This document shows positions 6,296 to 51,714 of a stretch of DNA of 64,000 bases, piece by piece. The stretch is from Spirochaetales bacterium (lineage in GTDB: Bacteria > Spirochaetota > Spirochaetia > JABEVK01), in NCBI GenBank assembly GCA_037142615.1, contig JBAXAI010000004.1, forward strand, positions 1 through 64,000, in the 5' to 3' direction. The notes under the pieces are model-generated. The model made no database searches and was not told the DNA's origin. It saw nothing but the letters and a program-made list of their open reading frames with translations. Position 1 is the first letter of the stretch. Each line of letters starts with the position of its first letter. A program made the position numbers and the translations under genes.

Positions 6296-6323
6296 GTCTC
6301 AGTCAATCACAAAACCGCTGGGT

Positions 6324-6352
6324 TTGACAAAGGCCCTTCCTTCCCTCAGTCT
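6324..6352 (+). promoter_or_regulatory. sigma70-like promoter, probably leaderless transcript
   Basis: TTGACA (6324-6329), 17 nt spacer, CAGTCT, 7 nt, then ATG 6360. Confidence 0.5.
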
Positions 6353-6359
6353 AGACCCT

Positions 6360-10229: not shown

Positions 10230-10307
10230 CGAGAACCTCCGGGAAGCAAGAAAAAGCGGTTGCCTTTTATGGGAATATCGGTAAGATGCTGGAGCTATTG
10301 GAGTGCC

Positions 10308-14867: not shown

Positions 14868-14928
14868 CTCGTTTCCTCTCAATTCTTCCAAGTTGACGAA
14901 AACAAGTTAAGTTGAGTGAAGATTTTGG

Positions 14929-33657: not shown

Positions 33658-35661
33658 CTATTTGTCGGTGAGGGTCCACACCCCATCCCAGTTCGGTGGC
33701 GGCCGCTTGAGCAGTTCGTCGCAGCGGCCGAGCATCAGCGCGGTGGGGTTGATTCCTTCCGGATGAGCCTCGAGCGCCAAGCAGGGCTCAAACAGCTCGC
33801 GGGCCTTGGCAAACTTCCCTTCGCGGTAGGCGAGGGTGGCTGGTACGAAAGCAGTCCGAAGAGCCGCTTGTCGCTCATCCAGCTGGGCCAGGGTGCCGAA
33901 CAGCTCGAAAACCGCCACAGGCTTGTCCTTGCCCTTGACCCGGATCAGGTCGATCGGCCTCACCGCGAAAGTTTCATGCAGGCCGGCCAACGTGAACTCG
34001 CTCACCAGGTTATCCAGGCCGTACTGCTTGGCTCCCGACTCCAGACGGGCCGCCAGATTCACCGCGTCTCCGATCAGGGTCAGGTCGATGCGGGCCTCGG
34101 CGGCCCCGATGTCGCACAAAATCACCTCGCCGGTATTCAGGCCCATCCGGATGAAAATGGGGTCGTCTTTGAGCAGCGGATGGCTGGCGTTCATTGTCGC
34201 GATTTCTTCGCGGATGCGTGACATATAGCCCAGCGCCGCTGCGGCTGAGCGGGCCGGGTCCTCGTCCATCCAAAAGGCCATGCACGCGTCGCCGATGAAC
34301 TTGTCGATATCGCCCCCGGCGCTCGTAATGGCCCGCGTGATCACCGAAAACAGCGTGTTGATCTGGTCGACAACCTCGCGCGGTGCGTAGCGCTCGCAGC
34401 GGTTGGTGAAGTTCTTGATGTCGCTGAAGAAAATGGTGGCGTTTTTGCGGTAGGCGCGGCTGGTGTTGTCGGCCCCCGAGAGGATGGACTTTTCGACGGC
34501 CATTTTTCGCGAGGCTTTGGAGACGTACTTTTCGATGTGGGCCTTTTCAATCTCGGCCCGCTGATTGGCGATCGTGCGCTCCACGTTGGCGAGCAGGTTG
34601 TCCTGGTTGAAGGGCTTGAGAACCACACCCTTGGCGCCGGCCTGCATCACCATTTTGACTTCGGCCTGGTTGTCCTGGTCGGTGAGCACCAGCAGGTCGC
34701 TGTTTTGAGCCTTGGGGAGCATGCGCATGGCCTTGATCAGGTCGATGGCGCTTCCATCGCCCAGGTCGGCTTCGCTGATCACCAGTTCGTGGGTAAAGCG
34801 GCGTAGCACCTTGATGGCATCTTGGATGGACGTGCAGACGCGAGGTGAAAAGCCCTGCTTGGCCAGGGTCTTGCTCATGTTGCGGGCAATGTTCAGGTCG
34901 GGCTCGACCACCAGAATGCTCTCGCGGCCCACCAGACTGTGCTGAAAAATCCGCTCGAGCCGCACCAGCAACTCGGGAATGTGCACGGGCTTGGTGATGT
35001 ACTCGTCCACCCCGGCCGCAAACCCCTTCCGCTGGTCAGAAACCGAGCCGAGAGTGCTCGACATGATGATGGGAATCTCGGCCAGCGCAGGGATCTTCCG
35101 GATGGCGCTGCAGGCCTCAAAGCCGTTCATCCGGGGCATCTCGATGTCGCTGATGATCAGGTCGGGAAGGATCTTCTGGGCCATTTCGAGCCCTTCCTGC
35201 CCATCCATGGCCGAGAAGGTTTCGTAGCCCTCTTCGGCCAGCGGCGGGCAAAGGTGCTTGTGGACCAGCTTGGAATCGTCAATCAACAGGATTTTGCGCC
35301 GGGTTTCGACCAGTTGACCGAGGGCCATCACCAGCTCTTCCTTCGACACCGGAAACTGAAGGAACGCGTCAACCACCGTCTTGGAGTATTCCTGCACCTG
35401 ATAGTCGGCCGACAGCAACACGATCTTGATGGTGCTCCCAAACAGGCGTTTGAGCTTTTTGCACATTTCGATGACGTCGTACTCGTGGGTTTCGGACTGG
35501 AGCACCAGCACCCCCCGGGGATCCTCGGCCACCCGGTACACGAATTGGTCGTAGTCGACGAAGCTGTCATCCTTGGTTTGAAAGTGCGACTCGAGGTAGT
35601 CTCGAAAGAACCGGTCCTCGACGCAAAAGAGCAGTTTGTTGGCCAGCGGTTCGGTTTTCAT
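33658..35661 (-). CDS. multi-receiver class III adenylate cyclase (REC-like, REC, REC-like, cyclase, TPR-like)
   Basis: IDD...ISDIEMP; FSDIKNFT, DKFIGDA, DLTLIGDAVNLAARLE (complete catalytic set). Confidence 0.92.
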   Translation of the reverse strand: MKTEPLANKLLFCVEDRFFRDYLESHFQTKDDSFVDYDQFVYRVAEDPRGVLVLQSETHEYDVIEMCKKLKRLFGSTIKIVLLSADYQVQEYSKTVVDAFLQFPVSKEELVMALGQLVETRRKILLIDDSKLVHKHLCPPLAEEGYETFSAMDGQEGLEMAQKILPDLIISDIEMPRMNGFEACSAIRKIPALAEIPIIMSSTLGSVSDQRKGFAAGVDEYITKPVHIPELLVRLERIFQHSLVGRESILVVEPDLNIARNMSKTLAKQGFSPRVCTSIQDAIKVLRRFTHELVISEADLGDGSAIDLIKAMRMLPKAQNSDLLVLTDQDNQAEVKMVMQAGAKGVVLKPFNQDNLLANVERTIANQRAEIEKAHIEKYVSKASRKMAVEKSILSGADNTSRAYRKNATIFFSDIKNFTNRCERYAPREVVDQINTLFSVITRAITSAGGDIDKFIGDACMAFWMDEDPARSAAAALGYMSRIREEIATMNASHPLLKDDPIFIRMGLNTGEVILCDIGAAEARIDLTLIGDAVNLAARLESGAKQYGLDNLVSEFTLAGLHETFAVRPIDLIRVKGKDKPVAVFELFGTLAQLDERQAALRTAFVPATLAYREGKFAKARELFEPCLALEAHPEGINPTALMLGRCDELLKRPPPNWDGVWTLTDK

Positions 35662-38606
35662 GCTTCCACCTTCTCAAGCAACCGGCTGTCGAGAAGGTTG
35701 ATGAGGTCTTCACTTTGCACGGGCTTTTTGAACACCTGGTCGATCTTCAGGCTGGCAATACGCATTTGATCCACGTCCTTGCCGGTGATCAGTACCACCG
35801 GGGTCTGCTCGTAAAGTGGGATCTTGCGCAACCGCTCGACAAACTCGTAGCCGTCCATCAGCGGCATCAGGATGTCGACACAAAAGGCGGAGTAGGTTTT
35901 GCTTCGGCAGGCCTTGAGGGCTTCAAAGCCGTTTTCGGCGGTGTCGACCCGGTATTGGGTGTCTTTGAGAATGGTCTTGAGGTTTTCACGCTGAATGGCC
36001 GAATCATCGACAATCAGCACCGTGTGGAGCGTCTGCCCGCCCAGAGTTGTCGGCGCCTGGGCGACCAGATTCATCGTCCCGGCCTGTTTGACGGCCTCGA
36101 CAATTTGCCGGGGGTCGAGGATCAGCACCAAGCGACTGTCGCGGAGGATGGTGCAACCCATCACAAACGGAGCCTTCTTGAGGAACCGCCCCAGGTTCTT
36201 GATCAGGATTTCTTGCCGCCCGAGCACCGAGTCGACCAAAATGCCGGTCAGACGGTTGTTTTCGTTGAGCACCACCATCTGCACCTTGTCGAGCTGAAAA
36301 CGGCTCTGCGGGAAGTTCAGAATCGCCGAAAGACTGGCCACGGGGATAGTTTGACCCTGGTAGTTGAAAATCAGGCGGTTCTCGACGGGGCGGATCTCTT
36401 GGCGCTGCACGGTGATCAGCGCCTCGATGTTGAGGATGGGCAAGGCGAACTGGTACGAGGATTCCTGCACCAGCAGAATTTTCACGATGGCCAGGGTGAG
36501 CGGGAGCTTGAGCTTGAAGCACGAACCATGGCCGGCCTGGCTTTCGGTTTCGATGGTGCCGTGCAGTTGATTGATGGCGGTTTTGACCACATCCATGCCG
36601 ACGCCGCGCCCCGACAGCTCGGTCACCTTGTCGTTGGTCGAAAAGCCGGGGAGGAAGATCAGTTCGAGGATTTCGGCATCGGTCAGCTTTCCCTTCTTGT
36701 TTTCGGGGATCAGATCCTTTTCCAGGGCCTTGGTGAGCACCCGGTCGACGTTGATGCCCCGCCCATCGTCGCGAATTTCGATGACGGCGTACGAACCGTG
36801 GTAGTAGGTTTCGAGCGTGATGGTGCCGACTTCGGGTTTGCCGAGCGCCAGGCGTTCTTCGGGGAACTCGATGCCGTGGTCGATGGAGTTGCGCAGCATG
36901 TGCAGCAGGGGGTCGGCCAGTTTGTTGATCAGCACTTTGTCGAGTTCGGTATCGCCGCCGACGATGTCGACACGGATCTTTTTGCCCACCGTTCGCGCCA
37001 GGTCGCGCAGTTGCAGCGGGAAGCGCTCAAAGAGGTTGGAAATCGGCACCATGCGGAAGCTCATCGCTCCGTTTTGCAGGCGGGTCGATAGCTGCTCCAG
37101 CGTCTCCAGGTTCTTTTGCAGCTGCTTCTGAATCTCTTCTATGGTCAGATAGTTGAGGTTCAGCTCTTCCTGCAGCGACATTTCGGCGCCCGAATTGTCG
37201 GGAATGAGCCGCGTGACCATTTGCGACAGCAGTTCGCCAAGTCGGTTTCCTGAGCTTCGACCGGAGCTGCGGCCGGGTTCGTTCAGGTGTTTGAGTTCTT
37301 TGGCAAACTCGGGAATGTAGAGGTTCAGTTTGGCCAGCATTCTCGAGCGCTGCAGCTCGGAAGCGCGCTCCAAAGTCGACTTGAACGACTTGAGAAACCC
37401 CTCAATGGCGGTGATTTCGTTCTGGAACCGGATGCGGCCGATGAAAATCTCGGAAGCTGTGTTGAGAACCTCGTCGAGTTTTTCGGAGCTCACCCGCAGC
37501 GACTCGGTGTTTTTGCCCCGGTCTTTGTCGGTTCCCCCGGCCCGCGGGGCTGGCGGGGCCACGGGCCCGAGCACCGGCGCAGAAACGGCGGGAGTCGGGG
37601 CCGGTGCCGGTGCCGGTTGACCCGCGATCAGGGCCTGCAGACGTTCCACCAACGGCCGGATCCGGGTGACAAAAGGCCCCCGCGAGGCGGTCTCCTCGAC
37701 CATTTCGGACAAAACGGCCTTGCCATCGAGCAGCAGGTCTACCACCTGCGAGCTGGCCTTCAGTTTGCCCTTGCGCACCAGGTCGAGCAGGTTTTCCATG
37801 TTGTGGGCCAGGCATTCGAGCTTCTTGATGTTGAGCAGGCGCGCGCCACCCTTGACGGTGTGAATCATCCGGAACAGGTCGTCGACGAGGGCAGGCGTGT
37901 CGGTGGCATTTTCGAGGTCGATGAGCAAGTTCGCGAAGTTGGCCAGGATTTCCGAGTTTTCTTCGTAGAAGTCGCTGATCATCCCCACTTTGTCGAGCGG
38001 CACGTTGAGCGGCTCCGGCTCGTCATCAAAGGGAATCTCGAGCGCTGGCAGGGTCGTGGCCGCGACGGGGCCTTCCACAACGGCCTCTTCGACCGGAAGG
38101 TCGTGCACCGGTTGGCTTTGATAGGCCTTGCTCGCCTCGTCGATCCGCAGGTTCCACTCGCGCAGCGGATTCTGCAGGTAATTGCGGCTCTCGTCCACGA
38201 GGTCGGTGATGTCCGGGTCCTGGGTTGCGGCGGACCCCAGGGTCTCCGCCAGTTCGCTGCCCTTGGTATAGAGCAGTTTGATCAGGTAATCGATGGAGTG
38301 CTCGCGAACCGTCTTGCGGTAGCGGGCCCAGTCAAGGGCGAAATCCAAAATCTGAAACAAGTGAGCGAGCTTGTCCAAACCGTGCAGCTTGGCCATCCCC
38401 GCCATGATGTGGTTATTGCGGTACAAATGGTCGAGAAGCTCCTCGCTTTCGGGAGTCAGGCTCAGTTCGTCGAGCAGGTCGAGTTGCGCTCGCACCGAGG
38501 CCGGCAAGCTTTGGGCAAAACTCAGGGCCGCAGGCGAAAGTCCGTCGGGTGCTGCGCTCTGGTGGTCCGACGAAAGGTTGGCGAGCACGCTGTCCTGGTA
38601 CTTCAT
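35658..38606 (-). CDS. cheA: hybrid CheA (two Hpt, HATPase, CheW, REC)
   Basis: LYRNNHIMAGMA; LFRMIHTVKGGA; RNSIDHGIE, DDGRG, SGRGVGMDVV; C-terminal REC; start MKYQ at 38606 after AGGAG. Confidence 0.92.
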   Translation of the reverse strand: MKYQDSVLANLSSDHQSAAPDGLSPAALSFAQSLPASVRAQLDLLDELSLTPESEELLDHLYRNNHIMAGMAKLHGLDKLAHLFQILDFALDWARYRKTVREHSIDYLIKLLYTKGSELAETLGSAATQDPDITDLVDESRNYLQNPLREWNLRIDEASKAYQSQPVHDLPVEEAVVEGPVAATTLPALEIPFDDEPEPLNVPLDKVGMISDFYEENSEILANFANLLIDLENATDTPALVDDLFRMIHTVKGGARLLNIKKLECLAHNMENLLDLVRKGKLKASSQVVDLLLDGKAVLSEMVEETASRGPFVTRIRPLVERLQALIAGQPAPAPAPTPAVSAPVLGPVAPPAPRAGGTDKDRGKNTESLRVSSEKLDEVLNTASEIFIGRIRFQNEITAIEGFLKSFKSTLERASELQRSRMLAKLNLYIPEFAKELKHLNEPGRSSGRSSGNRLGELLSQMVTRLIPDNSGAEMSLQEELNLNYLTIEEIQKQLQKNLETLEQLSTRLQNGAMSFRMVPISNLFERFPLQLRDLARTVGKKIRVDIVGGDTELDKVLINKLADPLLHMLRNSIDHGIEFPEERLALGKPEVGTITLETYYHGSYAVIEIRDDGRGINVDRVLTKALEKDLIPENKKGKLTDAEILELIFLPGFSTNDKVTELSGRGVGMDVVKTAINQLHGTIETESQAGHGSCFKLKLPLTLAIVKILLVQESSYQFALPILNIEALITVQRQEIRPVENRLIFNYQGQTIPVASLSAILNFPQSRFQLDKVQMVVLNENNRLTGILVDSVLGRQEILIKNLGRFLKKAPFVMGCTILRDSRLVLILDPRQIVEAVKQAGTMNLVAQAPTTLGGQTLHTVLIVDDSAIQRENLKTILKDTQYRVDTAENGFEALKACRSKTYSAFCVDILMPLMDGYEFVERLRKIPLYEQTPVVLITGKDVDQMRIASLKIDQVFKKPVQSEDLINLLDSRLLEKVEA

Positions 38607-38608
38607 GG

Positions 38609-39556
38609 TCACTCCTGATAGGGCAAGAGGTGTCGGCTGGCAAAGATCTTGGGCCCCGAGATGACGAAGATTCGCTCGGTTCCCGCCTCGATGATGCCCA
38701 AAAGGTAGTCGGCAAGTTCGCCCGAAAAGATATGGTCCACATTCTGGATCTGGCTGCGCAGGAACTTCTGCTTCTTCGAAATCGAGTCGATGCAAAGGGC
38801 CAGGTCCTGCTCCTCGTGCTGCAGCAAAATGTACTGGTTCTTTTCTTCCATCTTGCGGCTCGAAAGCCCGATCGCCTCCGAGATATCCACGCAGGCGATG
38901 ATCTGGCCACGCAGGTTGATGAGCCCGCGCAGAAAGCTGTTGGTTTGAAACAGTGGCTCGACGCTGTAGCCCGAAACCACCTCGATCAGATCGGTGATCG
39001 GGATCCCGAACCGGTGGTGGTCGATGCCAAAACAGACCATCTCGATTTCGTCCTTGGGGTCCACATGTTCTTCTTCCGGATGGAGTTGGGTGTCTTGCCC
39101 CTGCAGCTGAACGTGGATGTTGTTTTCGACGAACGACTTCAGGTAGTGCAAATTGAGGCGGTTCAGGGCCTTCCCCCGGTAACGGAACACCTGGTCGACC
39201 AGTTGCCCCGAGACTTCGGGCAACGGAGGAGTTTCTTCGGCCCCCTCTGCAGTCTCCAGGACCAAGGATTCGACAAAACGGTCGATCAGGACGGCAAAGA
39301 GCCGCGACTCGCACTCCAGCACCATCAAAGTATGCGGTCCGGCGGCTTCGCTCGGAGGCCGACTTCCGCCGGCCGCGTGAATATCAATCACCGGGCATAG
39401 GGTCTGGCGAAAGTCCAGATACCCCAGGAACCCCGACGTGAGGACCGGAGCCAGTACCAGTGTGGGCGTCCGAATCACCTCGCGGACGTGGTCGATCTGG
39501 ACGCAATAGTGAAACTCGTCCTTGGTGAAAACGGAATAGTGGCTACCGGTATCCAT
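38609..39556 (-). CDS. cheW: tandem CheW-domain protein
   Basis: Two CheW repeats (GYLDFR..CPVID; GLINLRGQIIACVD). Confidence 0.88.
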   Translation of the reverse strand: MDTGSHYSVFTKDEFHYCVQIDHVREVIRTPTLVLAPVLTSGFLGYLDFRQTLCPVIDIHAAGGSRPPSEAAGPHTLMVLECESRLFAVLIDRFVESLVLETAEGAEETPPLPEVSGQLVDQVFRYRGKALNRLNLHYLKSFVENNIHVQLQGQDTQLHPEEEHVDPKDEIEMVCFGIDHHRFGIPITDLIEVVSGYSVEPLFQTNSFLRGLINLRGQIIACVDISEAIGLSSRKMEEKNQYILLQHEEQDLALCIDSISKKQKFLRSQIQNVDHIFSGELADYLLGIIEAGTERIFVISGPKIFASRHLLPYQE

Positions 39557-39579
39557 GGGGGGCCTCTTTTACCGACGGT

Positions 39580-41325
39580 TCAAAAGTCTTCGTCCGCGGC
39601 CTCGCCTTTGCTGCCAGCCGAGCTCAGCGACTTGCGCCGGGAGGGCGGTGACGACAACCGCTCCGTCTGCCGATGCGAGGCCGAGGAAAGTTGCAGCGGT
39701 CGGTCTTCCTTGTGCACCCGGAAGAAGCTCAACGTTTCTTGGAGCAACTGAAGCTGGGCCAAGGAGTCTTTGGCGATGGCGGCCAACTCGACACCGACAC
39801 CGGCGTTGCTCTGCACGCCTTCATCCAGTTGCTGGATGGCTGAGTTGATCTGGTGCACTCCCGTGCTCTGTTCGGCCGAGGCTTCCGAGATTTGCTGCAC
39901 CAGGTCGGCGGTGCGTTGAATATCGGGGGTCAACTTGATCAGTTTTTGCCCGGCAAGTTCGGAAATCTGCATGCACGACGCCGTGAGGTTGGTGATTTCG
40001 ACCGCCGCAGCCTCGCTGCGCTCGGCCAGCTTTTGCACTTCGGAGGCGACCACTGCAAAACCCCGGCCCTGTTCGCCGGCTCGTGCCGCTTCGATCGCCG
40101 CGTTGATGGCCAACAAGTTCGTCTGGCCGGCGATGTCCTGGATGACCGAGATCTTGGCGGCGATTTCTTTCATCGCCTTCACCGTATTGCTCACCGACTC
40201 GCCGGAGTCTTTGGTGTCCATGGTGGCTTGAATGGCAATTCTTTCGGTGCTGATGGCGTTGTCGGCGTTTTGTTGAATGCTGACCGAGATCTCTTCCATT
40301 GCGGCAGCCACTTCTTCGAGCGAAGCCGCCTGCGAACTGGTGCTCAGCGACATTTCCTGCGCAGAGGTGGTCATTTGCCGCGCTCCGGTCGAGATGCTGT
40401 CGACAGCCGTGCCCAACTCGCCGATGATGCGGGTCAGCGACTCCTTCATCCGGGCCAAGGACATCCCCAGCACGTCGCGGTCGTTGAGCGGTTTGATTTC
40501 GAGCAGCAACGAGCCTTTGGAAATCGTTTCCAGCGATTCGGCCCGGTCGCGCAGCGTCACCATCATCTGGTCCATCGCGGTGGCCAACTGGCCCAGTTCG
40601 TCCTTGCGTTTGAGGTCTTTCGGGCGCAAGGTGTGGTCCAGGTCTCCTGCCGCGACCTTGGCGGCGAGGTCCACCGAGCTTCGCAGCGGACCAGAAATCG
40701 AGAAGGCGAGCAGGAAAGCCAAGAGCAGCGAAAGCACCACACCCACCACCATGATCACCGTCAGCAAGACGACCGAGCCCTGAACGTCGAGCTCGCTTTG
40801 TTTGAAAAGGCCTTCCACCTCGCTCACCGTCGAGGTGGTCATCGTACCGAGACTCGCGAGCAAGTCGGTTTTGGCCGCCAGCAACTCCGGCGACTTGAGA
40901 AACGCGACAAAAGCCGGAGTCTTGCCCACCAGCCCCAGACTCATGGCTTTGTCGCAAGCCTGAAACCACGCTACCGACGCCTTTTGCCAGGCTTCGAAGT
41001 TCTTCTGGTCTTGCGGGCTGCTGAAACCCGTGCTGTAGTTCTTGAGCACTTCCACGCAGATCGCCGAGGAATCGTCATAGCTTCGCTTCAAGGCCTCGTC
41101 TTCGGCCAACACCGAAGTGAGGGCCATGTCGCGGACCTGCTGGTTGACCTCGCTGAGGCCATCGGTGTACTTCAGGACCATCAACAGGCTTTGGGTCCCG
41201 TTGTTGTACGAGTCGTCGACCGCCTTGAGGGCCTTTTGAAGGCTGATGATCCCCAGGGCCCCCATCAACAGACCGACCAGGGCGACCCCCACAAAGCCTG
41301 AAATGAGTTTCACACGAATGGACAT
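39580..41325 (-). CDS. methyl-accepting chemotaxis protein (four-helix-bundle sensor)
   Basis: 2 [33 protein letters not shown]. Confidence 0.95.
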
Positions 41326-41492
41326 GAGTTCTCCTCCACAGCGAAGGCTGTAGTTTGAAGTTTAGGCCTATGAAAACGAATAGTCTAGAGATTTTGGAAA
41401 AAAGGTTGATGAATCCCGGCTCCGGTGACGGAACTAAACAATATTGACTGGCATAAACTTCTGATCGATCCTTAGGAGTGCGGAGGCCACCC

Positions 41493-43496: not shown

Positions 43497-43501
43497 CGGC
43501 C

Positions 43502-44011
43502 ATGGACTCCACCGAGATTCTCGAAGGGATCGAGCGGTCTCAAGACCTCGGAGGGCAGGGCACAGTCGTGGCCTCAAGCGACACCAAGTACATCATCTTC
43601 ACGGCAGGGGCCAAGCTCTACGCCTTGCTCGCTGACGACGTTCAGGAAATCATGCTGGGTTCCGAGATCCACTACCTGCCCTTTTTGCCAAGGTTTGTCC
43701 GTGGTTTGATCAACCGCCTCGGAGAACCGCTCACCGTGCTGGATCTCGAGTGCCTTCTCCAGGGACAACCGTTGCAGGGCAAGGCGTTCATCATCCTCAA
43801 GCCCCACCTTTCGAAGATGGCCCTGCTCATCGATGCGGTGCAGGACATCAGTCGGGTTCCCTCGCTGTCTATCCGCACCGTTTCGGAAGGCAGCCAGGGC
43901 CAGGACGCGTTTGTCGATGGCGTCTTCAGCCGCAAGGACGGCGATGTGACCCTTCTGTCGCTGCCCCACATCATTGCTGCGGTTCGGAAGGCCGTCGATG
44001 CTGCGAGCTGA
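43502..44011 (+). CDS. cheW: CheW
   Basis: LPFLPRFVRGLINRLGEPLTVLDL. Confidence 0.85.
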   Translation: MDSTEILEGIERSQDLGGQGTVVASSDTKYIIFTAGAKLYALLADDVQEIMLGSEIHYLPFLPRFVRGLINRLGEPLTVLDLECLLQGQPLQGKAFIILKPHLSKMALLIDAVQDISRVPSLSIRTVSEGSQGQDAFVDGVFSRKDGDVTLLSLPHIIAAVRKAVDAAS

Positions 44012-44528
44012 CTTTTTGGTGCTGCATTACGGGACTTTCGACCTCCTCTTTGCCCGGGACACGCTCTACGCTTCGACCTTTCGAAAGCCTTGCGAGGGAG
44101 TGACGGGCCGAGCCCGCGTGTCGTTTGGGCAGAAGGCCATCCTCGATATTGACCTTGATTCCTACGTGCGGCACCTGTTTCCTTCGGCCAGCGCGAGCCC
44201 GCCCCACCTGGGTGCCGTCTGCAAGGCCGCCGATCTGGCGGGTGGGAGCGACCAACTCGAGGGCGAGGAGCTTTTTTCGTTGGCCATTCCTTCGGATTCG
44301 GAAGTGCGGGCCTTGGAACTGTCGGAGTTCCGGCCCCTCCCGTTTCACCTGCGCCCTTGCCTCGACCGTCACGGCCTGCGGGCCCTTCGCTTTGAAGGGA
44401 GCCTGATTCAGTTCTTCTGCGACGCCGGAGTCTTTATTCCCGGGTGTCTGGCCTTTCATCAGTACAAAGGAGATAACGATGACCGTTCTGGTAGTTTCCC
44501 CGTCGGCTCTGCTACGCTCCACGCTTAA
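43998..44528 (+). CDS. hypothetical protein, possibly degenerate CheW-like
   Basis: ORF fills the cheW-cheB gap; weak CheW-like pattern. Confidence 0.5.
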   Translation: MLRADFLVLHYGTFDLLFARDTLYASTFRKPCEGVTGRARVSFGQKAILDIDLDSYVRHLFPSASASPPHLGAVCKAADLAGGSDQLEGEELFSLAIPSDSEVRALELSEFRPLPFHLRPCLDRHGLRALRFEGSLIQFFCDAGVFIPGCLAFHQYKGDNDDRSGSFPVGSATLHA

Positions 44529-45450
44529 AGAACTTCTGGGCCAGGTGGCAGGGGTCGATGCGGTGAGGGAGTTGGGCTCCGAGCTCCAGTTGGAATCGAC
44601 TCTCGGCCAATACGACCCCGCCCTAGTTCTCGTCGACGAAGCGCTGAACCTCAACCTGGCGCAGGTTGGCGGAGTATCTGGCACCGCGCCGGTCGTGATC
44701 CTCCTTCAAGGTCCCTCAACGCCGTCGCGAGCGCGGGCGTTGGCCAAACCCGATTTTGCCAGCGCGAGCCAAACCGACCTGAAAAAGACCTTTCTGCCCC
44801 TCCTGAGCGAGCTGGTGGTGGCTGCCGACGAAAAGCGTCAGCGAGGGGCCAACCCGCGCAACGGGGGCTCGACGGGGGCGTTTTCCCTGCTCGTGATCGG
44901 GGCTTCCACCGGCGGACCGGCTGCTGTCCGGACGGTCTTGTCCCATTTCGGCCCCGATTTTCCTTACCCGATAGCGTTGGTGCAGCACATCGATACCGGC
45001 TACGACGAGGGCTACGCCGCGTGGCTGGCACAAAACACCCGGCTGAAGGTGCGTTTGGCGCACGAAAACGACAGACCGTTGCCTGGCGAGGTGATCGTCG
45101 GGCCCAACGACGTGCACCTGGTTTGCCAAGGCGAAACCTTTGGCCTCGACGATGGCCCCAAGGTCCTTAGCCAGAAGCCCGCTGTGGACCGGTTGTTTTC
45201 CAGCGTGGCCCGCTACCATGGGGCGGGGGTTCTCGCGGTGCTTCTCACCGGAATCGGCTCGGATGGAGCCAACGGTTGCCTCGACATCGTGAAAGCCGGG
45301 GGCGTCACGATCGCCCAGGACGAAGCCACTTCGACCGTGTACGGCATGCCCCGGGCCGCCGCCGAGTTGGGGGCCGCCACCTACGTCTTGGGCCTCGACG
45401 CCATCGGCCCGGCGGTCCTGGAGCTGATCGCCAAGCGGCAACCATTGTGA
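44479..45450 (+). CDS. cheB: CheB methylesterase with degenerate receiver
   Basis: GASTGG, VQH, LTGIGSDGA, STVYGMP. Confidence 0.92.
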   Translation: MTVLVVSPSALLRSTLKELLGQVAGVDAVRELGSELQLESTLGQYDPALVLVDEALNLNLAQVGGVSGTAPVVILLQGPSTPSRARALAKPDFASASQTDLKKTFLPLLSELVVAADEKRQRGANPRNGGSTGAFSLLVIGASTGGPAAVRTVLSHFGPDFPYPIALVQHIDTGYDEGYAAWLAQNTRLKVRLAHENDRPLPGEVIVGPNDVHLVCQGETFGLDDGPKVLSQKPAVDRLFSSVARYHGAGVLAVLLTGIGSDGANGCLDIVKAGGVTIAQDEATSTVYGMPRAAAELGAATYVLGLDAIGPAVLELIAKRQPL

Positions 45451-46286
45451 TCGGCGAGCAGCGGCTCGAAGAACTGCGCCACTACCTCGAGCACCGGCTG
45501 TCGCTGGTGGTCCCCGAGACCAACTTTTCGCGGTTGGCCGAGTTCGTCGGCGAGCGCCTGGCCGCCCGGGTTTGTTCGTTCGCCGAGTACCTGGAGTACC
45601 TGGCGATCGACGCGGCCGAAATGGACCTGCTCATCCAGGTCTCCACCATTGGCGAGACCTACTTCTTCCGTGACGAAGACCACTTCACCTTGTTGCAACA
45701 GCAAATCCTGCCTTTCTTTGCCTCCCAGGGGCATACCCCCCTCGCTTGGAGCGCCGCCGCCTCCACCGGTGAAGAGGCTTTGTCGCTCGCCGCCCTTTAC
45801 GCCGACTTTTTCGGCAGTACCCTGCCTTTGGGGGGCAAAATCTGGGCCTCCGACATCAACAACCTCGCGCTCGAATCCCTCGTGTCGGGCTCGTATTCCT
45901 TCCGGTCCCTTCGCGACGACGGAAGCCGGTTTCACCCGCTCTTGGAACCCTGGCTTACTCGCGGCACAGACCATCTCCAGGTCGATTCGCGCCTCAACAG
46001 TCAAGTCCAAGCTCGGCATATCAACCTGATGACCGACAGCTTCGAGAGCATCCCTGGCCGCGTTGATATTCTGTTTCTGAAGAACATGCTGATTTACTTC
46101 CCGCTGGAACGTCGAAAGGCCATTTACCGCAAGGTGAGCGAAAAGCTCTCGCCGGAGGGGTTCTTGATACTCGGGAAGTCCGAAGTCCCCTTTTTCGAGG
46201 ATCCCGGGCTGAAACTCCTGGAACACGGAGGACTGTTCTTCTTTGTCGCCAAGACCTCGTCCTTCGAGGCAAGGAGCCTGCCGTGA
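45447..46286 (+). CDS. cheR: CheR methyltransferase
   Basis: IGETYFFRD, WSAAASTGEE, ASDI, KNMLIYF; GTG start overlapping cheB stop. Confidence 0.9.
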   Translation: MIGEQRLEELRHYLEHRLSLVVPETNFSRLAEFVGERLAARVCSFAEYLEYLAIDAAEMDLLIQVSTIGETYFFRDEDHFTLLQQQILPFFASQGHTPLAWSAAASTGEEALSLAALYADFFGSTLPLGGKIWASDINNLALESLVSGSYSFRSLRDDGSRFHPLLEPWLTRGTDHLQVDSRLNSQVQARHINLMTDSFESIPGRVDILFLKNMLIYFPLERRKAIYRKVSEKLSPEGFLILGKSEVPFFEDPGLKLLEHGGLFFFVAKTSSFEARSLP

Positions 46287-48364
46287 TCTCGACGGAACTT
46301 CTGAGTTTGTTCCAGACCCAAACCCGCGCTACCCTTGTAACGCTTCGCGCACTTCTGGTGCAGGCCCTTCGCAACGCCGACGACGAGATCCTCTGGATAC
46401 GGCTGCGGCGCCTGCTCGAAGCGCTGGCTGCCGACGCCCAGGCTGCCGAAAACACCGGTTTGGCCACGTTGGCAACCGCGATGAACCAGATTCCTACCGG
46501 ACTCCTCGAGGGGCGGTATTCGTTCGGCCCGCTCTACGTCAAGCTTTTGATGCTGCTCGCCGAGCACCTCGAAGACCTTCTGGGTGCCGTGTCGCAAACC
46601 ACCACCGAAAGGCTCGTCACCCTGTGCGACCTGTGCAACCGGGCCTACAACCGCGAGTCGTTTTCGCTCAAGGGGTTCTCGCTGGCCGAAATGCTGCAGC
46701 AAAAGCTGGCGCCGGAGGCCGCCAAGCTCGAGGCCAAGGGTGAGGAGTCGGTCCAAGTGAGCCTCGAGACGGTGGAACGCCTGGGTGAGAGGCTTAATTC
46801 GGTGATCGTGCACCAGTTCCAGCTCAAAAAGAACGGCGACGGCCTCTCGCTGGTCGAAGAAGCCGTGCGTGACCTCCTCGGGGGGTTGGCCGCCGGAGAA
46901 GCGGGGCCCAAAACGCGGCAGCGGGCCGAAACCGTTTTGAAGGACCTGCAGACTCTGGGAACCGGCCTCAAGGAAGACCTGCTGGCGGTGGACCGCTCGT
47001 CGTTTGGACTGCAGGAAGAGATTGCCCGGCTGCGCATGTTGCCCTTCCAGGTGATCTGCGAGCGATTGTCGGCGCACGCCCGCAAGCAGGCCCAGGGGGC
47101 TGGCAAAACCGTTGAGTTAGGCGTTCAGGGCCAAGACACCCTGCTCGACAAATCGATTCTCGAGCTGGTTTTGGTCCCGCTGTCGGAACTGCTTTCGAAC
47201 GCGGTGGCCCACGGAATCGGGCCCGGTGGCGACGGACAGGTGAAACTCGAGTGCTCGAGCGACGGCACCTCGATCCGCATCGCCGTGGTCGATCACGGTC
47301 CCGGGGTTGACTTCGAAGCGCTCCGCACGGCGGCTTTGGCGGCTTTCCCGTTGGAGCGTGCCGAAATCCTGGCCATGGGCGCCGAGCAGTTGACGAGGTT
47401 CCTGTTCGAGCCGGGCCTGGGAAACCGAACCGGGCTCGCCGCTGTCAAAGAAGCTCTCGACGCCATGCAGGGCAAAATCACCGTGGAATCGCCAACGGGA
47501 GCCGGTACGACGGTCGTGCTGCAAATCCCGGCTTCCGTGTCGCTGGTGAGCGGTTTTTTTGTCCGGGCCGGGGGCGAGAGGTTCTTCATTCCCGCCGTGT
47601 ACGTGCGCGAAGTGGTCATTTTTCAGCGCAGCCAACTGGTCAGTTTGCCGGGAGGACCCGTCTACCCGCTGCGGCAGGAAATGGTGCCCGTTGTTCCCCT
47701 GGCGAACGTGTTCGAAGGCAAGGAGGCCCTGCGCAAAGAGGTCGAGCAGATGGCCGTCATTTCGCTGCTAGGCGAAACCTGGGGCCTCATTCTCGACACG
47801 ATTGTGCGCCACGCGACCCTGGGCTACAAACCGCTTCCCGACAACCTTTCGTCGCTCAAGGAGGTGCAGGGCCTCGTCTACGACGAAAAGTTCAACCTGG
47901 TGCCCATCCTGAGCATCCCGGCGATCATCATCCAGATCCGACGCCTGCGCTCGATCGAGTTTCGCCAGCGCTACCAAAGAGCCGACGTTTCGGGGCGCAA
48001 TATCCTCTTGGTGGATGACAGCCTGGTCTCCCGCCAGACCTTGGGGCGCATCCTGACCGACGGAGGTTTCACCGTCGAGGTGGCCGAAGACGGTATCGCG
48101 GCGCTCGAATTGCTGCACCACAAATACTTCCATCTGGTGATCACCGACGACGAAATGCCACGGATGGATGGCCTGACTCTGGTCGAGAATCTGCGCAAAG
48201 AACCCGAGTACGTCGAAGTGCCCGTCATCGTCCTGGTCGCCGAACGCGACGGTGAGGCCGAAGGCCGGTTCCGCAACGCTGGCATCCGCGACTTTTCCCT
48301 CAAGTCCGACTTCGACCGCCACGCCTTGCTGCGCGACATCCGTCGGCTCTTGGCGCGGGGCTAG
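46283..48364 (+). CDS. CheA-like hybrid protein lacking the Hpt histidine
   Basis: LRMLPF, LLDKSILE, NAVAHGI, DHGPG, CheW and REC present; Hpt helix reads LRRLLEALAADA. Confidence 0.85.
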   Translation: MISTELLSLFQTQTRATLVTLRALLVQALRNADDEILWIRLRRLLEALAADAQAAENTGLATLATAMNQIPTGLLEGRYSFGPLYVKLLMLLAEHLEDLLGAVSQTTTERLVTLCDLCNRAYNRESFSLKGFSLAEMLQQKLAPEAAKLEAKGEESVQVSLETVERLGERLNSVIVHQFQLKKNGDGLSLVEEAVRDLLGGLAAGEAGPKTRQRAETVLKDLQTLGTGLKEDLLAVDRSSFGLQEEIARLRMLPFQVICERLSAHARKQAQGAGKTVELGVQGQDTLLDKSILELVLVPLSELLSNAVAHGIGPGGDGQVKLECSSDGTSIRIAVVDHGPGVDFEALRTAALAAFPLERAEILAMGAEQLTRFLFEPGLGNRTGLAAVKEALDAMQGKITVESPTGAGTTVVLQIPASVSLVSGFFVRAGGERFFIPAVYVREVVIFQRSQLVSLPGGPVYPLRQEMVPVVPLANVFEGKEALRKEVEQMAVISLLGETWGLILDTIVRHATLGYKPLPDNLSSLKEVQGLVYDEKFNLVPILSIPAIIIQIRRLRSIEFRQRYQRADVSGRNILLVDDSLVSRQTLGRILTDGGFTVEVAEDGIAALELLHHKYFHLVITDDEMPRMDGLTLVENLRKEPEYVEVPVIVLVAERDGEAEGRFRNAGIRDFSLKSDFDRHALLRDIRRLLARG

Positions 48365-48366
48365 CG

Positions 48367-49914
48367 ATGTTCGTCGTGCTGCTGGGCGACGCGGCGTTGT
48401 GGCCCGAGGTGTGGCGTGCCCCGCCGTTGCAGTTCCTGTGCCTTGCCAGCGACGACGGGTTCGCCGATTTCGACGGGGGCTCGCTGGACACGGTTCCCGA
48501 CCTTGTCGTGCTCGACCAACCGGGCGCCCCAGGGTTTCTCGCCCTTCTGAACCACCTCAAGTTCCAGTTTTCCGAGAACCGGACCCGACTCGTCGCCTGG
48601 TCGGGAACCCCGAGCCCGCGCGAAGTGTTTGTGTGCCACAACGCGGGGCTACTCCTTTTGCACCCCGGCCTGGTCGAGGAACTTCCTTCGCTGGAGGCTC
48701 TACCCAGGCCCGTTCTTCCTGGTTCGCCGAGGCCGGAGGCGCTGAACCTCGAAAATCTCGGGTTCGCGCTGAGCCTGCACCAAAACCTGACCCAGTCGTT
48801 TTTGGAAAGCCAGAACCCGACGGCGCTGTTTTGGCACCTGCGAAATGCCTTTTCCCTGGTTTCGAATCCGGACATCCTGGTATTCATCCTGAAGGACCGC
48901 CCGCAAATCAAGGCGACAATCTTCTCTGGGCCCGGCCTCGCCACCACCGAGTGCGATTATTTTTTACGTTTCTGCCAGCAGGATTTTTTGGGGACCGACC
49001 GGTTTGTCGACCTCGAGTCGATGGAAGTCGAGTACCTCGAAAAGGACCAGCGGCTCTTGACGGGGCGGGGCCGGGGAGCGCTGAGCTCGTATTGGTTCCA
49101 CGAGCTGAAGGACCCGCAGGGAACGAGCCTCGGGACGGTTCACAGCGGCAGTTTCAGCAACCAGTATTTTACCCCCCTGGTCGAGCGGCGTCTGTCGTAC
49201 CTGGCGGTTCTGGTGGGGCCCCTGGTCGGCATGATGCAGCGCGGCCAGCAACTGAGCCGACGTTTCGTGTCGCTGAGGGCCCTGTTCGGAAAGTTCCTCC
49301 CCGACCCGGTGGTGGAAAAACTTCTGGCCGCCGAGCAGGATGGACCGTTGGAAGAGGGCCGGAAGCAGGAGCTGGCCATTTTGTTTTCCGACATCCGGGG
49401 CTTCACGTCGATCACCGAGCGAAACGGTGCCGAGGCGGTGGTCGGCTTCCTGAACCGGCATTTCGACGCCATGGTGACGGCCATTGTGGCCCACGGCGGC
49501 GTTGTCGACAAGTTCATCGGCGATGCCATCGTCGCGGTGTTTGGCATCAACCCGCTGCCGACTTCGGCGGCCGAGGCCGCTGCCCGGGCCGCGCGGGCCA
49601 TGATGGCAACCCTGAACACCGTGGACCTTTCGGGTCTTGCACTCGAAGGCAACGCCTACCGCATCGGCATCGGCCTGCACTTCGGCGAAGTCGTTCTCGG
49701 CTACCTGGGCTCAGACGAAAAGACCTCGTTCACCGTCATCGGAAAGGCCGTGGAAACCGCCGAACTCCTGGAGTCGTCCACCAAGCTTTACCACGTCGAT
49801 ATTTTGGCTTCCGGGGAACTGCGCGACCAGATTCAGGCCGAAGACCTGGCGTTCATCGACCTCGGCAAGCTGGAAGACGCCGAAGGAGACACCCTCAGGG
49901 TGTATACGGTATGA
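48367..49914 (+). CDS. class III cyclase homolog A (metal-binding Asps kept, Asn/Arg lost)
   Basis: FSDIRGFT, DKFIGDA present; GKAVETAELLE replaces GDxVNxAxRLE. Confidence 0.88.
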   Translation: MFVVLLGDAALWPEVWRAPPLQFLCLASDDGFADFDGGSLDTVPDLVVLDQPGAPGFLALLNHLKFQFSENRTRLVAWSGTPSPREVFVCHNAGLLLLHPGLVEELPSLEALPRPVLPGSPRPEALNLENLGFALSLHQNLTQSFLESQNPTALFWHLRNAFSLVSNPDILVFILKDRPQIKATIFSGPGLATTECDYFLRFCQQDFLGTDRFVDLESMEVEYLEKDQRLLTGRGRGALSSYWFHELKDPQGTSLGTVHSGSFSNQYFTPLVERRLSYLAVLVGPLVGMMQRGQQLSRRFVSLRALFGKFLPDPVVEKLLAAEQDGPLEEGRKQELAILFSDIRGFTSITERNGAEAVVGFLNRHFDAMVTAIVAHGGVVDKFIGDAIVAVFGINPLPTSAAEAAARAARAMMATLNTVDLSGLALEGNAYRIGIGLHFGEVVLGYLGSDEKTSFTVIGKAVETAELLESSTKLYHVDILASGELRDQIQAEDLAFIDLGKLEDAEGDTLRVYTV

Positions 49915-51662
49915 GCACCCCACCGAAAACCCTGCTGGTGCTCGATGACTCGGAGTTCTTCTCGGCGTTCCTTGAGCCCATTCTCGAAGCTTCGGGCTAC
50001 GCTGTCACCACGCGCCCGGAACTGGCCGGCGCGTTGCTGATCGATCCCACGTGGCATTCCGATTCGGGCTACCTGCTGCTGGCGGCGCTGCGCGAGCTTG
50101 CCCCCCGCACAACGCTTCCTGTCGTGGTTCTGCTGGCCTCGACGAGCAGCCAGTCGAGGGCCTTTCTTCAGGGCCTGCAGTTCCCCTGGACGGTGAAAGG
50201 TCGGCTGAAGGCCGAGTCTCTGGGCCGCTACGTCGGCCGCCACTTGGGGCAGCAGGCCTGGGCCGGAGAGTTTGGCCGCCTGGTCGAAGAGGCTCTGGCC
50301 AAGTCGCTCCAGGTCGACTCCCGGCCGTTTTTGCACCCGCTGATCAGCGGCTCGTTGCTTCACGCGATTTCCGAGGCCGATCACCTGGCCAGGGCCCTCG
50401 AATTGGGCGTCCAGTCGCTGTTGGATCATTTTCCGTTGCTCGCCGCGGGCCTGGAAGTGAATGGTTCCCGTCTGTTGGCCTGTTGTGCGAACCCCGAGGC
50501 CAGGCGGGCGGCCACGGCAGTCCGCGAGACCTTGGGTTGGTCCCCGGAACCGTCCGAGCCCGAACTGCGCGAACTTTCGGCTGATTTTCCGGGGTGGCGG
50601 GCAACCGGCGGGCAGGCAACCGGGGGGCAGTTCGAGCGGAGTTTCACGTTGCCTCGCTGCGGTGGCCGGCTTGTCGCCGTATTCGGTACCGACGACGACC
50701 TGATTCTCGATTACTTTGGGCGTGCGCTCGACGATTTCGACCGGGCTTTGACGGTCCTGACCCAAGGCCTGGCTCTGGCAAACTCCGAGCGGCGCGTGTT
50801 TCGGGTCTTTTCGCGCTTTGTGCCCTCGGTGGTGATCGAGGATCTGCTGCGAAAACGTTCGGCCGCCGCCCTGCTCACCGGCGAAAAGCGACGCATCGTC
50901 GCGCTGTTTTCCCACGTGCGCGACTTTTCGTTCTACGTCGAGGAAAATGACCCGAAAGAACTGGTGCGGTTCTTGAACCGCCATTTCAGCCTTTACGCCA
51001 AGGTCATCCGCAAGCACGGAGGGTTCATCAACAAATACATCGGCGACGCCGTGTTTGCGATTTTTGGAGCGCCGGTCAGCCACATCGACAACGCCCGCCG
51101 GGCGCTTGCCGCTGCCCTCGAGATCCAGCAGGAACTGGCCCAATTGCCGTTGCTGGACCTGCACTATCCCCCCAGTGGCTACCGGGTCGGCCTGGGCCTC
51201 AACGAGGGCGAGTCCATCGTCGGCAACATCGGCAGCCGGGACTCCTTTGACTACACGGCCATCGGCGACACCATCAATCTCGCGGCCCGTCTGGAATCGC
51301 TGTGCAAGCACTACCAGGTCGAGCTGCTGCTGTCCCAGGATTTCCGGCAGGCCTTGGAGTCGCAGGAAGATCCGCACCCGCTGCGGCAGGTCGACCGGGC
51401 ACGCGTCAAGGGAAAGCTGGTGCCGACGGTATTCCATACCGTGTACCCCGCCGAGTTTGACCTCGAGTTTGACCGCTGCTACCGCAAAGGCCTCACCATG
51501 TTCCGCCTCGGCAACTGGACCACGGCGCTCGAGTTTTTCGAAAAAGGCCTCGAACTGGATCCCAGCGACTTCCTGTGCGGCCTGTACTCGCAGCGCTGCC
51601 GCGAGTTCTTGAAGGCACCTCCTGTGAGTTGGGACGGCGCCATCACGCTGGGGTTCAAATAG
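49911..51662 (+). CDS. class III cyclase homolog B (REC-like N-terminus, first metal Asp lost, Asn/Arg kept, TPR-like tail)
   Basis: FSHVRDFS, NKYIGDA, DYTAIGDTINLAARLE, VKGK; ATGA overlap. Confidence 0.88.
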   Translation: MSTPPKTLLVLDDSEFFSAFLEPILEASGYAVTTRPELAGALLIDPTWHSDSGYLLLAALRELAPRTTLPVVVLLASTSSQSRAFLQGLQFPWTVKGRLKAESLGRYVGRHLGQQAWAGEFGRLVEEALAKSLQVDSRPFLHPLISGSLLHAISEADHLARALELGVQSLLDHFPLLAAGLEVNGSRLLACCANPEARRAATAVRETLGWSPEPSEPELRELSADFPGWRATGGQATGGQFERSFTLPRCGGRLVAVFGTDDDLILDYFGRALDDFDRALTVLTQGLALANSERRVFRVFSRFVPSVVIEDLLRKRSAAALLTGEKRRIVALFSHVRDFSFYVEENDPKELVRFLNRHFSLYAKVIRKHGGFINKYIGDAVFAIFGAPVSHIDNARRALAAALEIQQELAQLPLLDLHYPPSGYRVGLGLNEGESIVGNIGSRDSFDYTAIGDTINLAARLESLCKHYQVELLLSQDFRQALESQEDPHPLRQVDRARVKGKLVPTVFHTVYPAEFDLEFDRCYRKGLTMFRLGNWTTALEFFEKGLELDPSDFLCGLYSQRCREFLKAPPVSWDGAITLGFK

Positions 51663-51714
51663 GCGCCTTTCTCGAAGGCGGAGAATCCGTGCTACTATGC
51701 GCTGGGGGCCCCAC

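Follow-up and report, generated by a model that had tools for sequence, protein, structure and literature searches.

The window analysed here is a stretch of 64,000 nucleotides from a Spirochaetales bacterium, located at the start of contig C4 in a genome of 4.27 Mb with 62 % G+C. Positions 33658–51662 harbour two divergent chemosensory gene clusters, termed the left and right arms, with class III cyclase genes at their distal ends. Gene calls, Pfam searches and start refinement resolve 12 closely packed genes (Table 1), in the same content, order and strands as an earlier reading of the bare letters (the sequence-only reading). Junctions are overlapping or nearly abutting throughout both arms, most lying within a few bases, with ATGA or GTGA overlaps at 35658–35661, 45447–45450, 46283–46286 and 49911–49914. 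The right-arm receptor gene is taken to start at ATG 41493, with GGAGG 7 nt upstream (GTG 41478 is the alternative), and from this start the 167 bp intergenic region reported earlier is reproduced. A promoter scan of this region finds no match to the sigma-70 consensus, and a terminator scan is likewise empty. Because an independent DNA run (X3) yields a contig that bridges the head-to-head junction, spanning 37726–41747, an assembly artefact at this point can be excluded; the stretch is also represented in freshwater and lake metagenome runs.

Both arms encode a chemosensory core by Pfam analysis, namely a methyl-accepting chemotaxis protein (MCP), CheW, and a CheA in which the dimerisation region, the ATPase and the CheW-like P5 domain are all recognised, and NCBIfam CheA models align to residues 490–831 of CheA_L and 231–543 of CheA_R. 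No CheY, CheZ, CheC or CheX gene occurs within 33658–51662, and there is no space for one because the 12 genes fill the interval, in agreement with the earlier remark that a stand-alone CheY or phosphatase is missing from both arms. GGDEF domains are found in none of the 12 proteins (Pfam), such that a receiver (REC)-GGDEF output of the Wsp type is lacking, and the only encoded outputs of both clusters are, as had been proposed, nucleotidyl cyclases, here of class III.

Table 1. Features of the two chemosensory arms (positions in the window)
Feature	Coordinates	Strand	Assignment and basis
RRcyc_L	33658–35661	−	667 aa; Pfam Response_reg (two stretches), Guanylate_cyc
CheA_L	35658–38606	−	982 aa; Pfam Hpt, H-kinase_dim, HATPase_c, CheW, Response_reg
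CheW-CheW	38609–39556	−	Tandem coupling protein; Pfam CheW in two stretches (38645–39043, 39248–39532)
MCP_L	39580–41325	−	Pfam 4HB_MCP_1 (5e-12), HAMP (2e-9), MCPsignal (7e-34); second HAMP-like stretch
Divergent intergenic region	41326–41492	.	167 bp with ATG 41493 as MCP_R start
MCP_R	41493 (or GTG 41478)–43496	+	Pfam dCache_2/sCache_2, HAMP, MCPsignal
CheW_R	43502–44011	+	Pfam CheW (4e-17); conserved across the family
CheW2 ('unknown')	43998–44528	+	176 aa; no Pfam or NCBIfam match; fold-based
CheB_R	44479–45450	+	Pfam CheB_methylest (6e-53), no Response_reg match
CheR_R	45447–46286	+	Pfam CheR (2e-33); GTGA overlaps at both ends
CheA_R	46283–48364	+	Pfam HATPase_c, CheW, Response_reg; no Hpt
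cycA	48367–49914	+	Pfam Guanylate_cyc (6e-18); alignments, residue table, model
cycB	49911–51662	+	Pfam Guanylate_cyc, TPR_2; ATGA overlap with cycA

The right-arm family, its cyclases and its CheA

Full-length relatives of CheA_R (E ≤ 1e-87) occur in 30 of 401 genomes of the class, spread over many families. Of the 29 non-self loci, 20 were fetched, and in each of these MCP, CheW, CheB, CheR, CheA and cyclase follow in the same order, with the cyclase adjoining CheA in 20/20. A second set, which shares genomes with the first, comprises 56 family loci from a CheA-alignment scan of 185,579 species genomes. These are mostly metagenome-assembled genomes (MAGs) of Spirochaetales/Spirochaetia, including Marispirochaeta, Sediminispirochaeta, Treponemataceae and Breznakiellaceae, together with one labelled Leptospirales and nine MAGs of Desulfobacteraceae or Desulfococcaceae; the Desulfobacterota CheAs nest within the spirochaete ones in the CheA tree. 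Downstream of CheA, one complete cyclase is present in 36 of the 56 loci and two in 12, with the cyclase cut by the contig end in four, no room before the contig end in three, and no cyclase within 8 kb in one. The CheA–cyclase pairing of the right arm, when surveyed for synteny, thus recurs in 52 of the 53 loci with downstream sequence, directly after CheA and in two phyla. Because this adjacency recurs across genomes, a chance neighbourhood can be excluded for the right arm, despite the 29 cyclase-domain matches within the genome. The sole roomy locus without a cyclase, that of Desulfococcaceae bacterium HSG8 (L094), has the order MCP, CheW, CheA, CheB, CheR, with a cyclic-nucleotide-binding-domain match some 3 kb upstream of the MCP gene.

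The two cyclases that end the right arm do not appear to be independent outputs but complementary halves of one predicted enzyme. The cycA product consists of a pseudo-receiver, a GAF-like domain, a long helix and a cyclase domain, whilst that of cycB comprises a degenerate receiver, a GAF-like domain, a cyclase domain and a tetratricopeptide repeat (TPR) tail. Neither chain alone carries all six catalytic residues, all of which are present in 36/36 single cyclases. CycA, which is C1-like, keeps both metal-binding Asp, with the transition-state Asn and Arg replaced (by E and L in the window). Across the 13 two-cyclase rows of the alignment it retains D, K, D and T in 13/13 and Asn and Arg in 0/13, the Asn site being occupied by E, S, A, G, T or R and the Arg site by L, E, N or H; a TPR tail is absent from these rows. 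CycB, which is C2-like, has His at metal site 1 and keeps K, D, T, N and R, along with the TPR tail, in 13/13 of the same rows, and this His (H335 in the window) is invariant in 15/15 cycB sequences from two-cyclase genomes. Complementary residue sets of the C1/C2 type are therefore found in 13/13 cycA/cycB pairs, and the pattern is invariant across 13 to 16 genomes. From these residues, cycA and cycB are predicted to form an obligate heterodimer with one complete active site and one dead pseudo-site. A Lys/Thr pair marks adenylate cyclases, which take ATP as substrate, and its presence here points to cyclic AMP (cAMP) as the product; the messenger named in the sequence-only reading is thereby supported as a prediction. 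In the cyclase tree, cycA sequences form one clade (Shimodaira–Hasegawa-like approximate likelihood ratio test, SH-aLRT, 97) and single cyclases another (99). As both clades are monophyletic, one duplication suffices to account for them.

Structural prediction for cycA (mean predicted local distance difference test score, pLDDT, 75) gives a small alpha/beta domain at the N-terminus, followed by a GAF-like domain and a long helix, and a cyclase domain that superposes on CyaC (1wc1, template modelling (TM) score 0.82) and CyaB (3r5g, TM 0.83 target-normalised, root-mean-square deviation 2.0 Å). Soluble guanylate cyclase (sGC) chains are also amongst its fold matches by Foldseek. With the full-length protein as query, Foldseek matches were limited to the cyclase domain and to whole sensor-cyclase chains, and the receiver-like and GAF-like calls derive from alignment to canonical members, secondary structure and Pfam matches in relatives. 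Within the cycA pseudo-receiver only the Asp is kept, a set short of that of a phosphorylatable receiver. The cycB N-terminus has an 11-residue deletion and no Pfam receiver match.

CheA_R differs from most of its relatives at the phosphorylation site. It is composed of a P1-like bundle without the His, a dimerisation region, an altered ATPase, a CheW-like domain and an intact REC domain, and the family alignment places Glu at the phospho-accepting His position, with deletions of nine residues after the N box and ten in the ATP lid. The residues D578, D579, D622 and K674 of its REC domain are present and invariant in the family alignment. The P1 His is missing from 11 of the 52 family CheAs with a readable P1, including the window (Glu) and a sister species (G002), and the bundle of these proteins, still collinear, contains no conserved substitute His. 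All 11 His-less CheAs are accompanied by cycA and cycB where the contig allows, and they form one clade (SH-aLRT 99). The CheB receiver is degenerate in 11/11 His-less loci, with Asp changed to G or A or the acidic pair lost (as in the window, where SP stands in place of DD, so that CheB_R has no phosphorylatable receiver), and it retains D, D, D and K in 35/35 His-bearing loci with data. Because the P1 His is lost and the CheB receiver degenerate, ordinary phosphotransfer from CheA_R seems unlikely. The CheA-to-cyclase phosphorylation implied by the sequence-only reading is compatible with the left arm, where the residues concerned are intact, and not with the right, with His replaced by Glu and the ATP lid ten residues shorter.

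Relatives of the right arm also bear on the order in which these changes may have arisen. In single-cyclase genomes, CheA has a Pfam Hpt domain with the motif LHTIKGSSRM, its N, G1 and G2 boxes are normal, as is the CheB receiver, and the cyclase, of the ancestral type, is a REC-GAF-cyclase-TPR protein with a canonical receiver. Of 21 family cyclases searched with Pfam, all 21 match the cyclase domain, 13 match Response_reg, four match GAF_2 and 11 match TPR_2. Three two-cyclase genomes keep the CheA His and a normal CheB. Because this His-bearing group branches first in the cycA clade, the sequences suggest that the cyclase was duplicated first and that the CheA His was lost later. The CheA, cycA and cycB trees show the same grouping.

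Amongst the remaining right-arm proteins, the one labelled 'unknown' in the sequence-only reading was rightly placed and can now be described as a CheW-fold protein. Whilst neither Pfam nor NCBIfam searches of this protein give a match, a gene occupies the same slot between cheW and cheB in 19/21 loci, and the predicted model (pLDDT 86, predicted TM score 0.80) returns 17 Foldseek matches at E ≤ 0.001, which together with the next (1.5e-3) are all CheW or CheA P5 (best E 4e-7, TM up to 0.69). Sequence comparison gives an hhalign probability of 19.6 %, and a profile search of the PDB yields CheW chains only, at E of about 0.5, which is weak evidence. The two-barrel CheW/P5 fold of the model identifies the product, on structural prediction, as a second, very divergent CheW. 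CheR is 274–279 aa in the window, the sister species and one further locus (L058), compared to 444–497 aa in the family, most members of which have an extension of about 200 aa that is absent here. The long family form was not adopted as a CheR-TPR, as this extension has no TPR or other Pfam match. MCP_R aligns to CtpM with no net indels and has arms of roughly 20 + 20 heptads, some 40 in total (141 and 143 residues flanking the tip Glu529), these figures being estimates only. Its Cache half (41493–42500) diverges from the sister-species locus (L043), such that only residues 353–671 match (86 %) and the whole protein reaches 57 %. For the signalling half and every gene downstream, identity is 72–83 %, which suggests replacement or fast divergence of the MCP_R sensor domain.

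Ratios of nonsynonymous to synonymous substitution rates (dN/dS) between the window and the sister species could be computed for six of the eight right-arm genes (CheW_R and CheR_R were left out). They are 0.06 for CheB, 0.07 for CheA_R, 0.08 for cycA, 0.11 for cycB, 0.15 for CheW2 and 0.21 for MCP_R, rough values as dS is saturated (above 1.5), and place the computed genes under purifying selection. All eight right-arm reading frames are intact in the two species. Both arms are covered in part, at ≥ 99 % identity, by contigs of two metatranscriptome libraries (21 and 17 of 30 bins), amongst them contigs on MCP_L (39618–41340). In these two runs no contig falls on 48372–50363, which takes in most of cycA together with the beginning of cycB; no conclusion is drawn from this. 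Being from RNA libraries, these contigs are a hint, and no proof, that both arms are transcribed.

The left arm and the independence of the two arms

The left arm has the appearance of an orthodox phosphorelay. CheA_L, which starts 2 nt past the stop of the CheW-CheW gene, harbours a canonical Hpt domain (Pfam 6e-16, motif HTVKGG) preceded by a degenerate Hpt-like region. The phospho-accepting His of P1 is intact, and the ATPase boxes and receiver read as normal. Recent duplication from one of the genome's other CheA genes was ruled out, identities to those CheAs being only 25–37 %. RRcyc_L, the gene of which overlaps that of CheA_L by ATGA, was correctly recognised in the sequence-only reading as a REC-cyclase, although its description requires correction in that the receiver-like domains number three, the middle one alone being canonical. 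In order, the protein comprises a pseudo-REC, a canonical REC, a second pseudo-REC in which Glu replaces the Asp, a class III cyclase domain and a TPR-like tail, and the sister-species orthologue has the same receiver pattern, with only the second canonical and Glu in the third. The residues of a phosphorylatable receiver are complete in the CheA_L REC and in the second REC of RRcyc_L, and incomplete in the first and third. The full catalytic set of six (D, K, D, T, N and R) is kept in RRcyc_L and its orthologue, as is needed for a competent homodimer. MCP_L has about 34 heptads by residue count, an estimate only, and no CheB or CheR gene is present in this arm. The intact residues indicate, as the simplest reading, a phosphorelay to a homodimeric adenylate cyclase. 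The 4HB receptor would act through CheW-CheW on an ordinary CheA-REC kinase, and CheA_L would phosphorylate the single canonical receiver of RRcyc_L, the putative homodimer.

That the arms constitute a single module of 18 kb, as had been supposed, is not borne out by the sister species, in which the left arm lies on one contig (C11) and the right arm on another (C2), with no left-arm gene within 5 kb upstream of the right-arm MCP. Proteins of this species are 41–86 % identical to those of the window. It also holds the only CheA_L orthologue amongst the 401 genomes of the class, and the left arm as a whole was found in this genus alone, in two species of the 401. The right arm, unlike the left, is an old and widely shared system. 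As part of the overall explanation given below, the arms are probably independent, non-flagellar chemosensory pathways placed head to head, each ending in cAMP synthesis. The sequence-only reading is thus supported in part: it is correct on output and wrong on unity and mechanism.

Possible signal routes in the right arm

The explanation that best accommodates these results, and which is considered reasonably probable, is that of two independent pathways to cAMP, with the right arm using a heterodimeric cyclase and signalling through contact. It builds upon what is observed of the genes present, of their residue patterns, of their conservation and of the purifying selection acting on them, from which one may infer heterodimerisation, the cAMP product and the signal route. 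The ancestral form would have possessed a His-bearing CheA, a normal CheB receiver and one REC-GAF-cyclase with all catalytic residues. In the lineage of the window the cyclase gene would have been duplicated and the copies become complementary, with cycA giving the two metal-binding Asp and cycB giving Lys, Thr, Asn and Arg. Later, CheA would have lost its His and part of the ATP lid, and CheB its acid pocket or Asp, whereupon the receptor–CheW–CheA_R array would have ceased His-to-Asp transfer from CheA_R. The kinase-dead CheA_R, with its retained P1-like and REC domains, would then dock the pseudo-receivers and reach the cyclase via protein contacts, and CheR and CheB would, through methylation, continue to set the state of the receptor. 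The furthest-reaching part of this proposal is more tentative. An array wholly without phosphotransfer, in which CheA_R is an allosteric scaffold relaying receptor and methylation state to a single-site heterodimeric adenylate cyclase, is possible, yet on present evidence somewhat doubtful. The same doubt attaches, jointly with that array, to the notion that three evolutionary stages survive: a phosphorelay to a homodimeric REC-cyclase, split cyclases with an active CheA, and His loss with CheB decay.

Because the CheA_R receiver and the cycB of the window keep acidic and Lys residues, the main rival is a right arm that is still run by phosphate, with the donor lying elsewhere, be it CheA_L, another histidine kinase or acetyl phosphate. 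Phosphate would load the CheA_R receiver, and perhaps that of cycB, and the array would gate a phospho-dependent REC to pseudo-REC switch. The C-terminal receiver of CheA keeps D, D and D in 11/11 His-less members and K in 9/11, and DD, D and K are kept at the cycB N-terminus in this genus, which speaks for continued selection on some phosphorylation chemistry in the right arm and makes a foreign phosphodonor a live alternative. A candidate donor is close at hand, as CheA_L, with its canonical Hpt and Hpt-like regions, is encoded 167 bp away on the opposite strand, and a hybrid Cache-histidine kinase-REC protein and another histidine kinase are also encoded nearby. Together with these retained residues, several further points weigh against the explanation preferred here. 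CheA_R keeps the N-box Asn and the DxGxG G1 box, and to judge from these may retain ATP binding. The loss of His and the decay of CheB lie in one clade and count as one event, not 11 independent ones. The window and the sister species sit on a stem of 3.06 substitutions per site, leaving their placement open to long-branch attraction, and the substrate specificity behind the cAMP assignment is read from two residues only. A foreign donor is itself opposed by the separation of the arms onto different contigs in the sister species, by the restriction of CheA_L orthologues to that species amongst the 401 genomes, and by the absence of any left-arm-type gene from the 8-kb flanks of nine His-less loci outside the genus. 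The loss of Asp or acid pocket from CheB in every His-less locus is what would be expected if phosphorylation had stopped mattering, and the deletion and missing receiver match at the cycB N-terminus likewise speak against loading of that domain. On this balance a foreign donor is judged unlikely, if still a serious contender.

Two further alternatives carry far less weight. The cyclases could be mere neighbours of the chemosensory genes, with their own GAF-like or cAMP-unrelated inputs, and the chemosensory proteins could act elsewhere, for example on a flagellar CheY. Chance adjacency does occur in a genome with so many cyclase domains, stand-alone CheY genes exist in two other clusters (C1 and C7), and the GAF-like middle domain could bind a ligand. 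Those clusters, however, have their own CheA. The 4-nt overlaps of cyclase genes with CheA or adjoining genes, the placement of the cyclase directly after CheA in all but one of the 53 loci, the canonical receiver of the ancestral-type cyclase and the like grouping of the cycA, cycB and CheA trees all tell against the idea, which is regarded as very improbable. Marginally less credible still is that the right arm is decaying and no longer functional, a relic of the ancestral system. It would account for the lost His, the shortened ATP lid, the degenerate receivers, the catalytic incompleteness of each cyclase alone and the very long branch. It is at odds with eight intact reading frames in two species, with dN/dS of 0.06–0.21 in the six computed genes, with cyclase losses that are exactly complementary, and invariant over 13 to 16 genomes, with the same derived state in 11 loci of one clade, and with RNA-library contigs on several right-arm genes.

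Genomic surroundings and known systems

Beyond the two arms, the genome contains 18 cyclic-nucleotide-binding-domain matches alongside its cyclase domains, and four other chemosensory clusters, all of which encode regulators of their own (CheY or REC-PP2C). The C8 cluster has a CheA with a P2 domain and a CheW-CheR fusion, those on C1 and C7 have CheY and their own CheA, and that on C16 has a REC-PP2C protein with an RsbW-like protein. The last (L145, 7285–14897) comprises MCP, REC-SpoIIE (PP2C), an RsbW-like ATPase, CheA (two CheW-like stretches and REC), CheW, CheB and CheR, and is a non-motility chemosensory input to a partner-switching module. There are two FliG genes, the main one on contig C8 and a second paralogue within the window (62116–63318, +; FliG_N, FliG_M and FliG_C).

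Several other genes of the window also deserve mention. At 6294–8000 (+), a 568 aa protein has Fer2 (1e-8) fused to a class III cyclase domain, and could be a redox-sensing cyclase. A 525 aa protein encoded at 8916–10493 (−) combines an RsbW-like HATPase_c_2 with a cyclic-nucleotide-binding domain, and could link cAMP to partner switching. The gene for a caspase-domain (Peptidase_C14) protein at 13752–14891 (−) adjoins one for a protein with Listeria-Bacteroides repeat domains. Two neighbours were considered as linked effectors and dropped. One, at 28759–30099 (−), encodes an Ion_trans, Ion_trans_2 channel protein with a C-terminal cyclic-nucleotide-binding domain, and is separated from the left arm by 3.5 kb that contain unrelated genes. 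The other encodes a patatin-like phospholipase (51697–52923, +), 35 bp after cycB, with a weak NCBIfam match (1.6e-10, below cut-off) to the cGAMP-activated lipase of cyclic-oligonucleotide-based antiphage signalling systems (CBASS). It has no cyclic-nucleotide-binding match, and no counterpart is found in the 4.7 kb after the sister-species cycB.

Chemotaxis-like pathways that do not serve motility are common and few have known outputs, the textbook cases being cyclic di-GMP (c-di-GMP; Wsp) and, indirectly, cAMP (Chp). Wsp of Pseudomonas is a chemosensory cluster of the alternative cellular function class, with MCP, couplers, CheR, CheB and CheA-REC, and its output, WspR, is a REC-GGDEF protein. 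The arrangement described here is similar in that a full chemotaxis-like cluster carries a second-messenger cyclase regulator in its operon. It differs in that the output is a class III mononucleotidyl cyclase (PF00211), with cAMP as the predicted product, rather than GGDEF and c-di-GMP, and in that the right arm of the window has a His-less CheA and a predicted two-gene heterodimer with pseudo-receivers. In Pil-Chp of Pseudomonas aeruginosa, CyaB is unlinked and without a receiver, and control by Chp is indirect. Chemosensory activity raises cAMP there, cAMP is the predicted product here, and the cycA cyclase domain superposes on CyaB, but the present cyclases are operon-encoded and their ancestral form has a canonical receiver.

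The divided residues of cycA and cycB recall the C1 and C2 halves of animal cyclases, in which one half gives the metal-binding Asp and the other the substrate-specifying and transition-state residues. As in mammalian C1/C2 and sGC alpha/beta, one active site and one pseudo-site are predicted. Unlike C1/C2, these are two separate bacterial genes, seemingly derived from a homodimeric REC-GAF-cyclase, in a chemosensory operon, and cycA retains its own Lys and Thr whilst an invariant His replaces Asp in cycB. With regard to CheA_R, the nearest comparison is with CheA3 and CheA4 of Rhodobacter sphaeroides, neither of which autophosphorylates alone, although they complement each other and phosphotransfer is retained. 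CheA_R is likewise predicted to be unable to autophosphorylate alone, but it retains a P1-like domain that lacks the His, and this loss is accompanied by decay of the CheB receiver.

A literature search returned no study of a chemosensory-to-class-III-cyclase system in spirochaetes, and no report of a His-less CheA or of a bacterial heterodimeric class III cyclase. Passage searches of PMC8396549, PMC2447327 and PMC9239204 likewise gave nothing relevant. The nearest and only precedent found is one row of Table S2 in PMC3447774, a paper that cites WspR and, in its text, counts mononucleotidyl cyclase among output domains. This row lists, for NaphS2 (a delta proteobacterium), a CheR-TPR cluster with the regulator 'REC - CHD mononucleotidyl cyclase'. 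It resembles the present family in joining a chemosensory cluster to a REC-cyclase regulator, in an organism of the Desulfobacterales type that forms the second lineage of the right-arm family. The row gives no analysis of cyclase or CheA, the cluster being at most a candidate member of the same family, and the long CheR of the family has, unlike the NaphS2 CheR-TPR, no Pfam TPR match.

Within the known range of non-motility, second-messenger chemosensory pathways, what is new here is the split cyclase and the His-less CheA, both of them derived. In this conserved family of clusters, carried by free-living spirochaetes and sulfate-reducer relatives, a cAMP cyclase would serve as the pathway's own response regulator, a direct wire from receptor to cAMP. 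As intermediate forms survive, the order of changes is open to comparison of living systems. A CheA that has lost its His in a cluster under selection raises the question of signalling by receptor arrays in the absence of phosphotransfer, and the predicted C1-like and C2-like subunits of this bacterial class III cyclase would be an arrangement otherwise known from animal enzymes.

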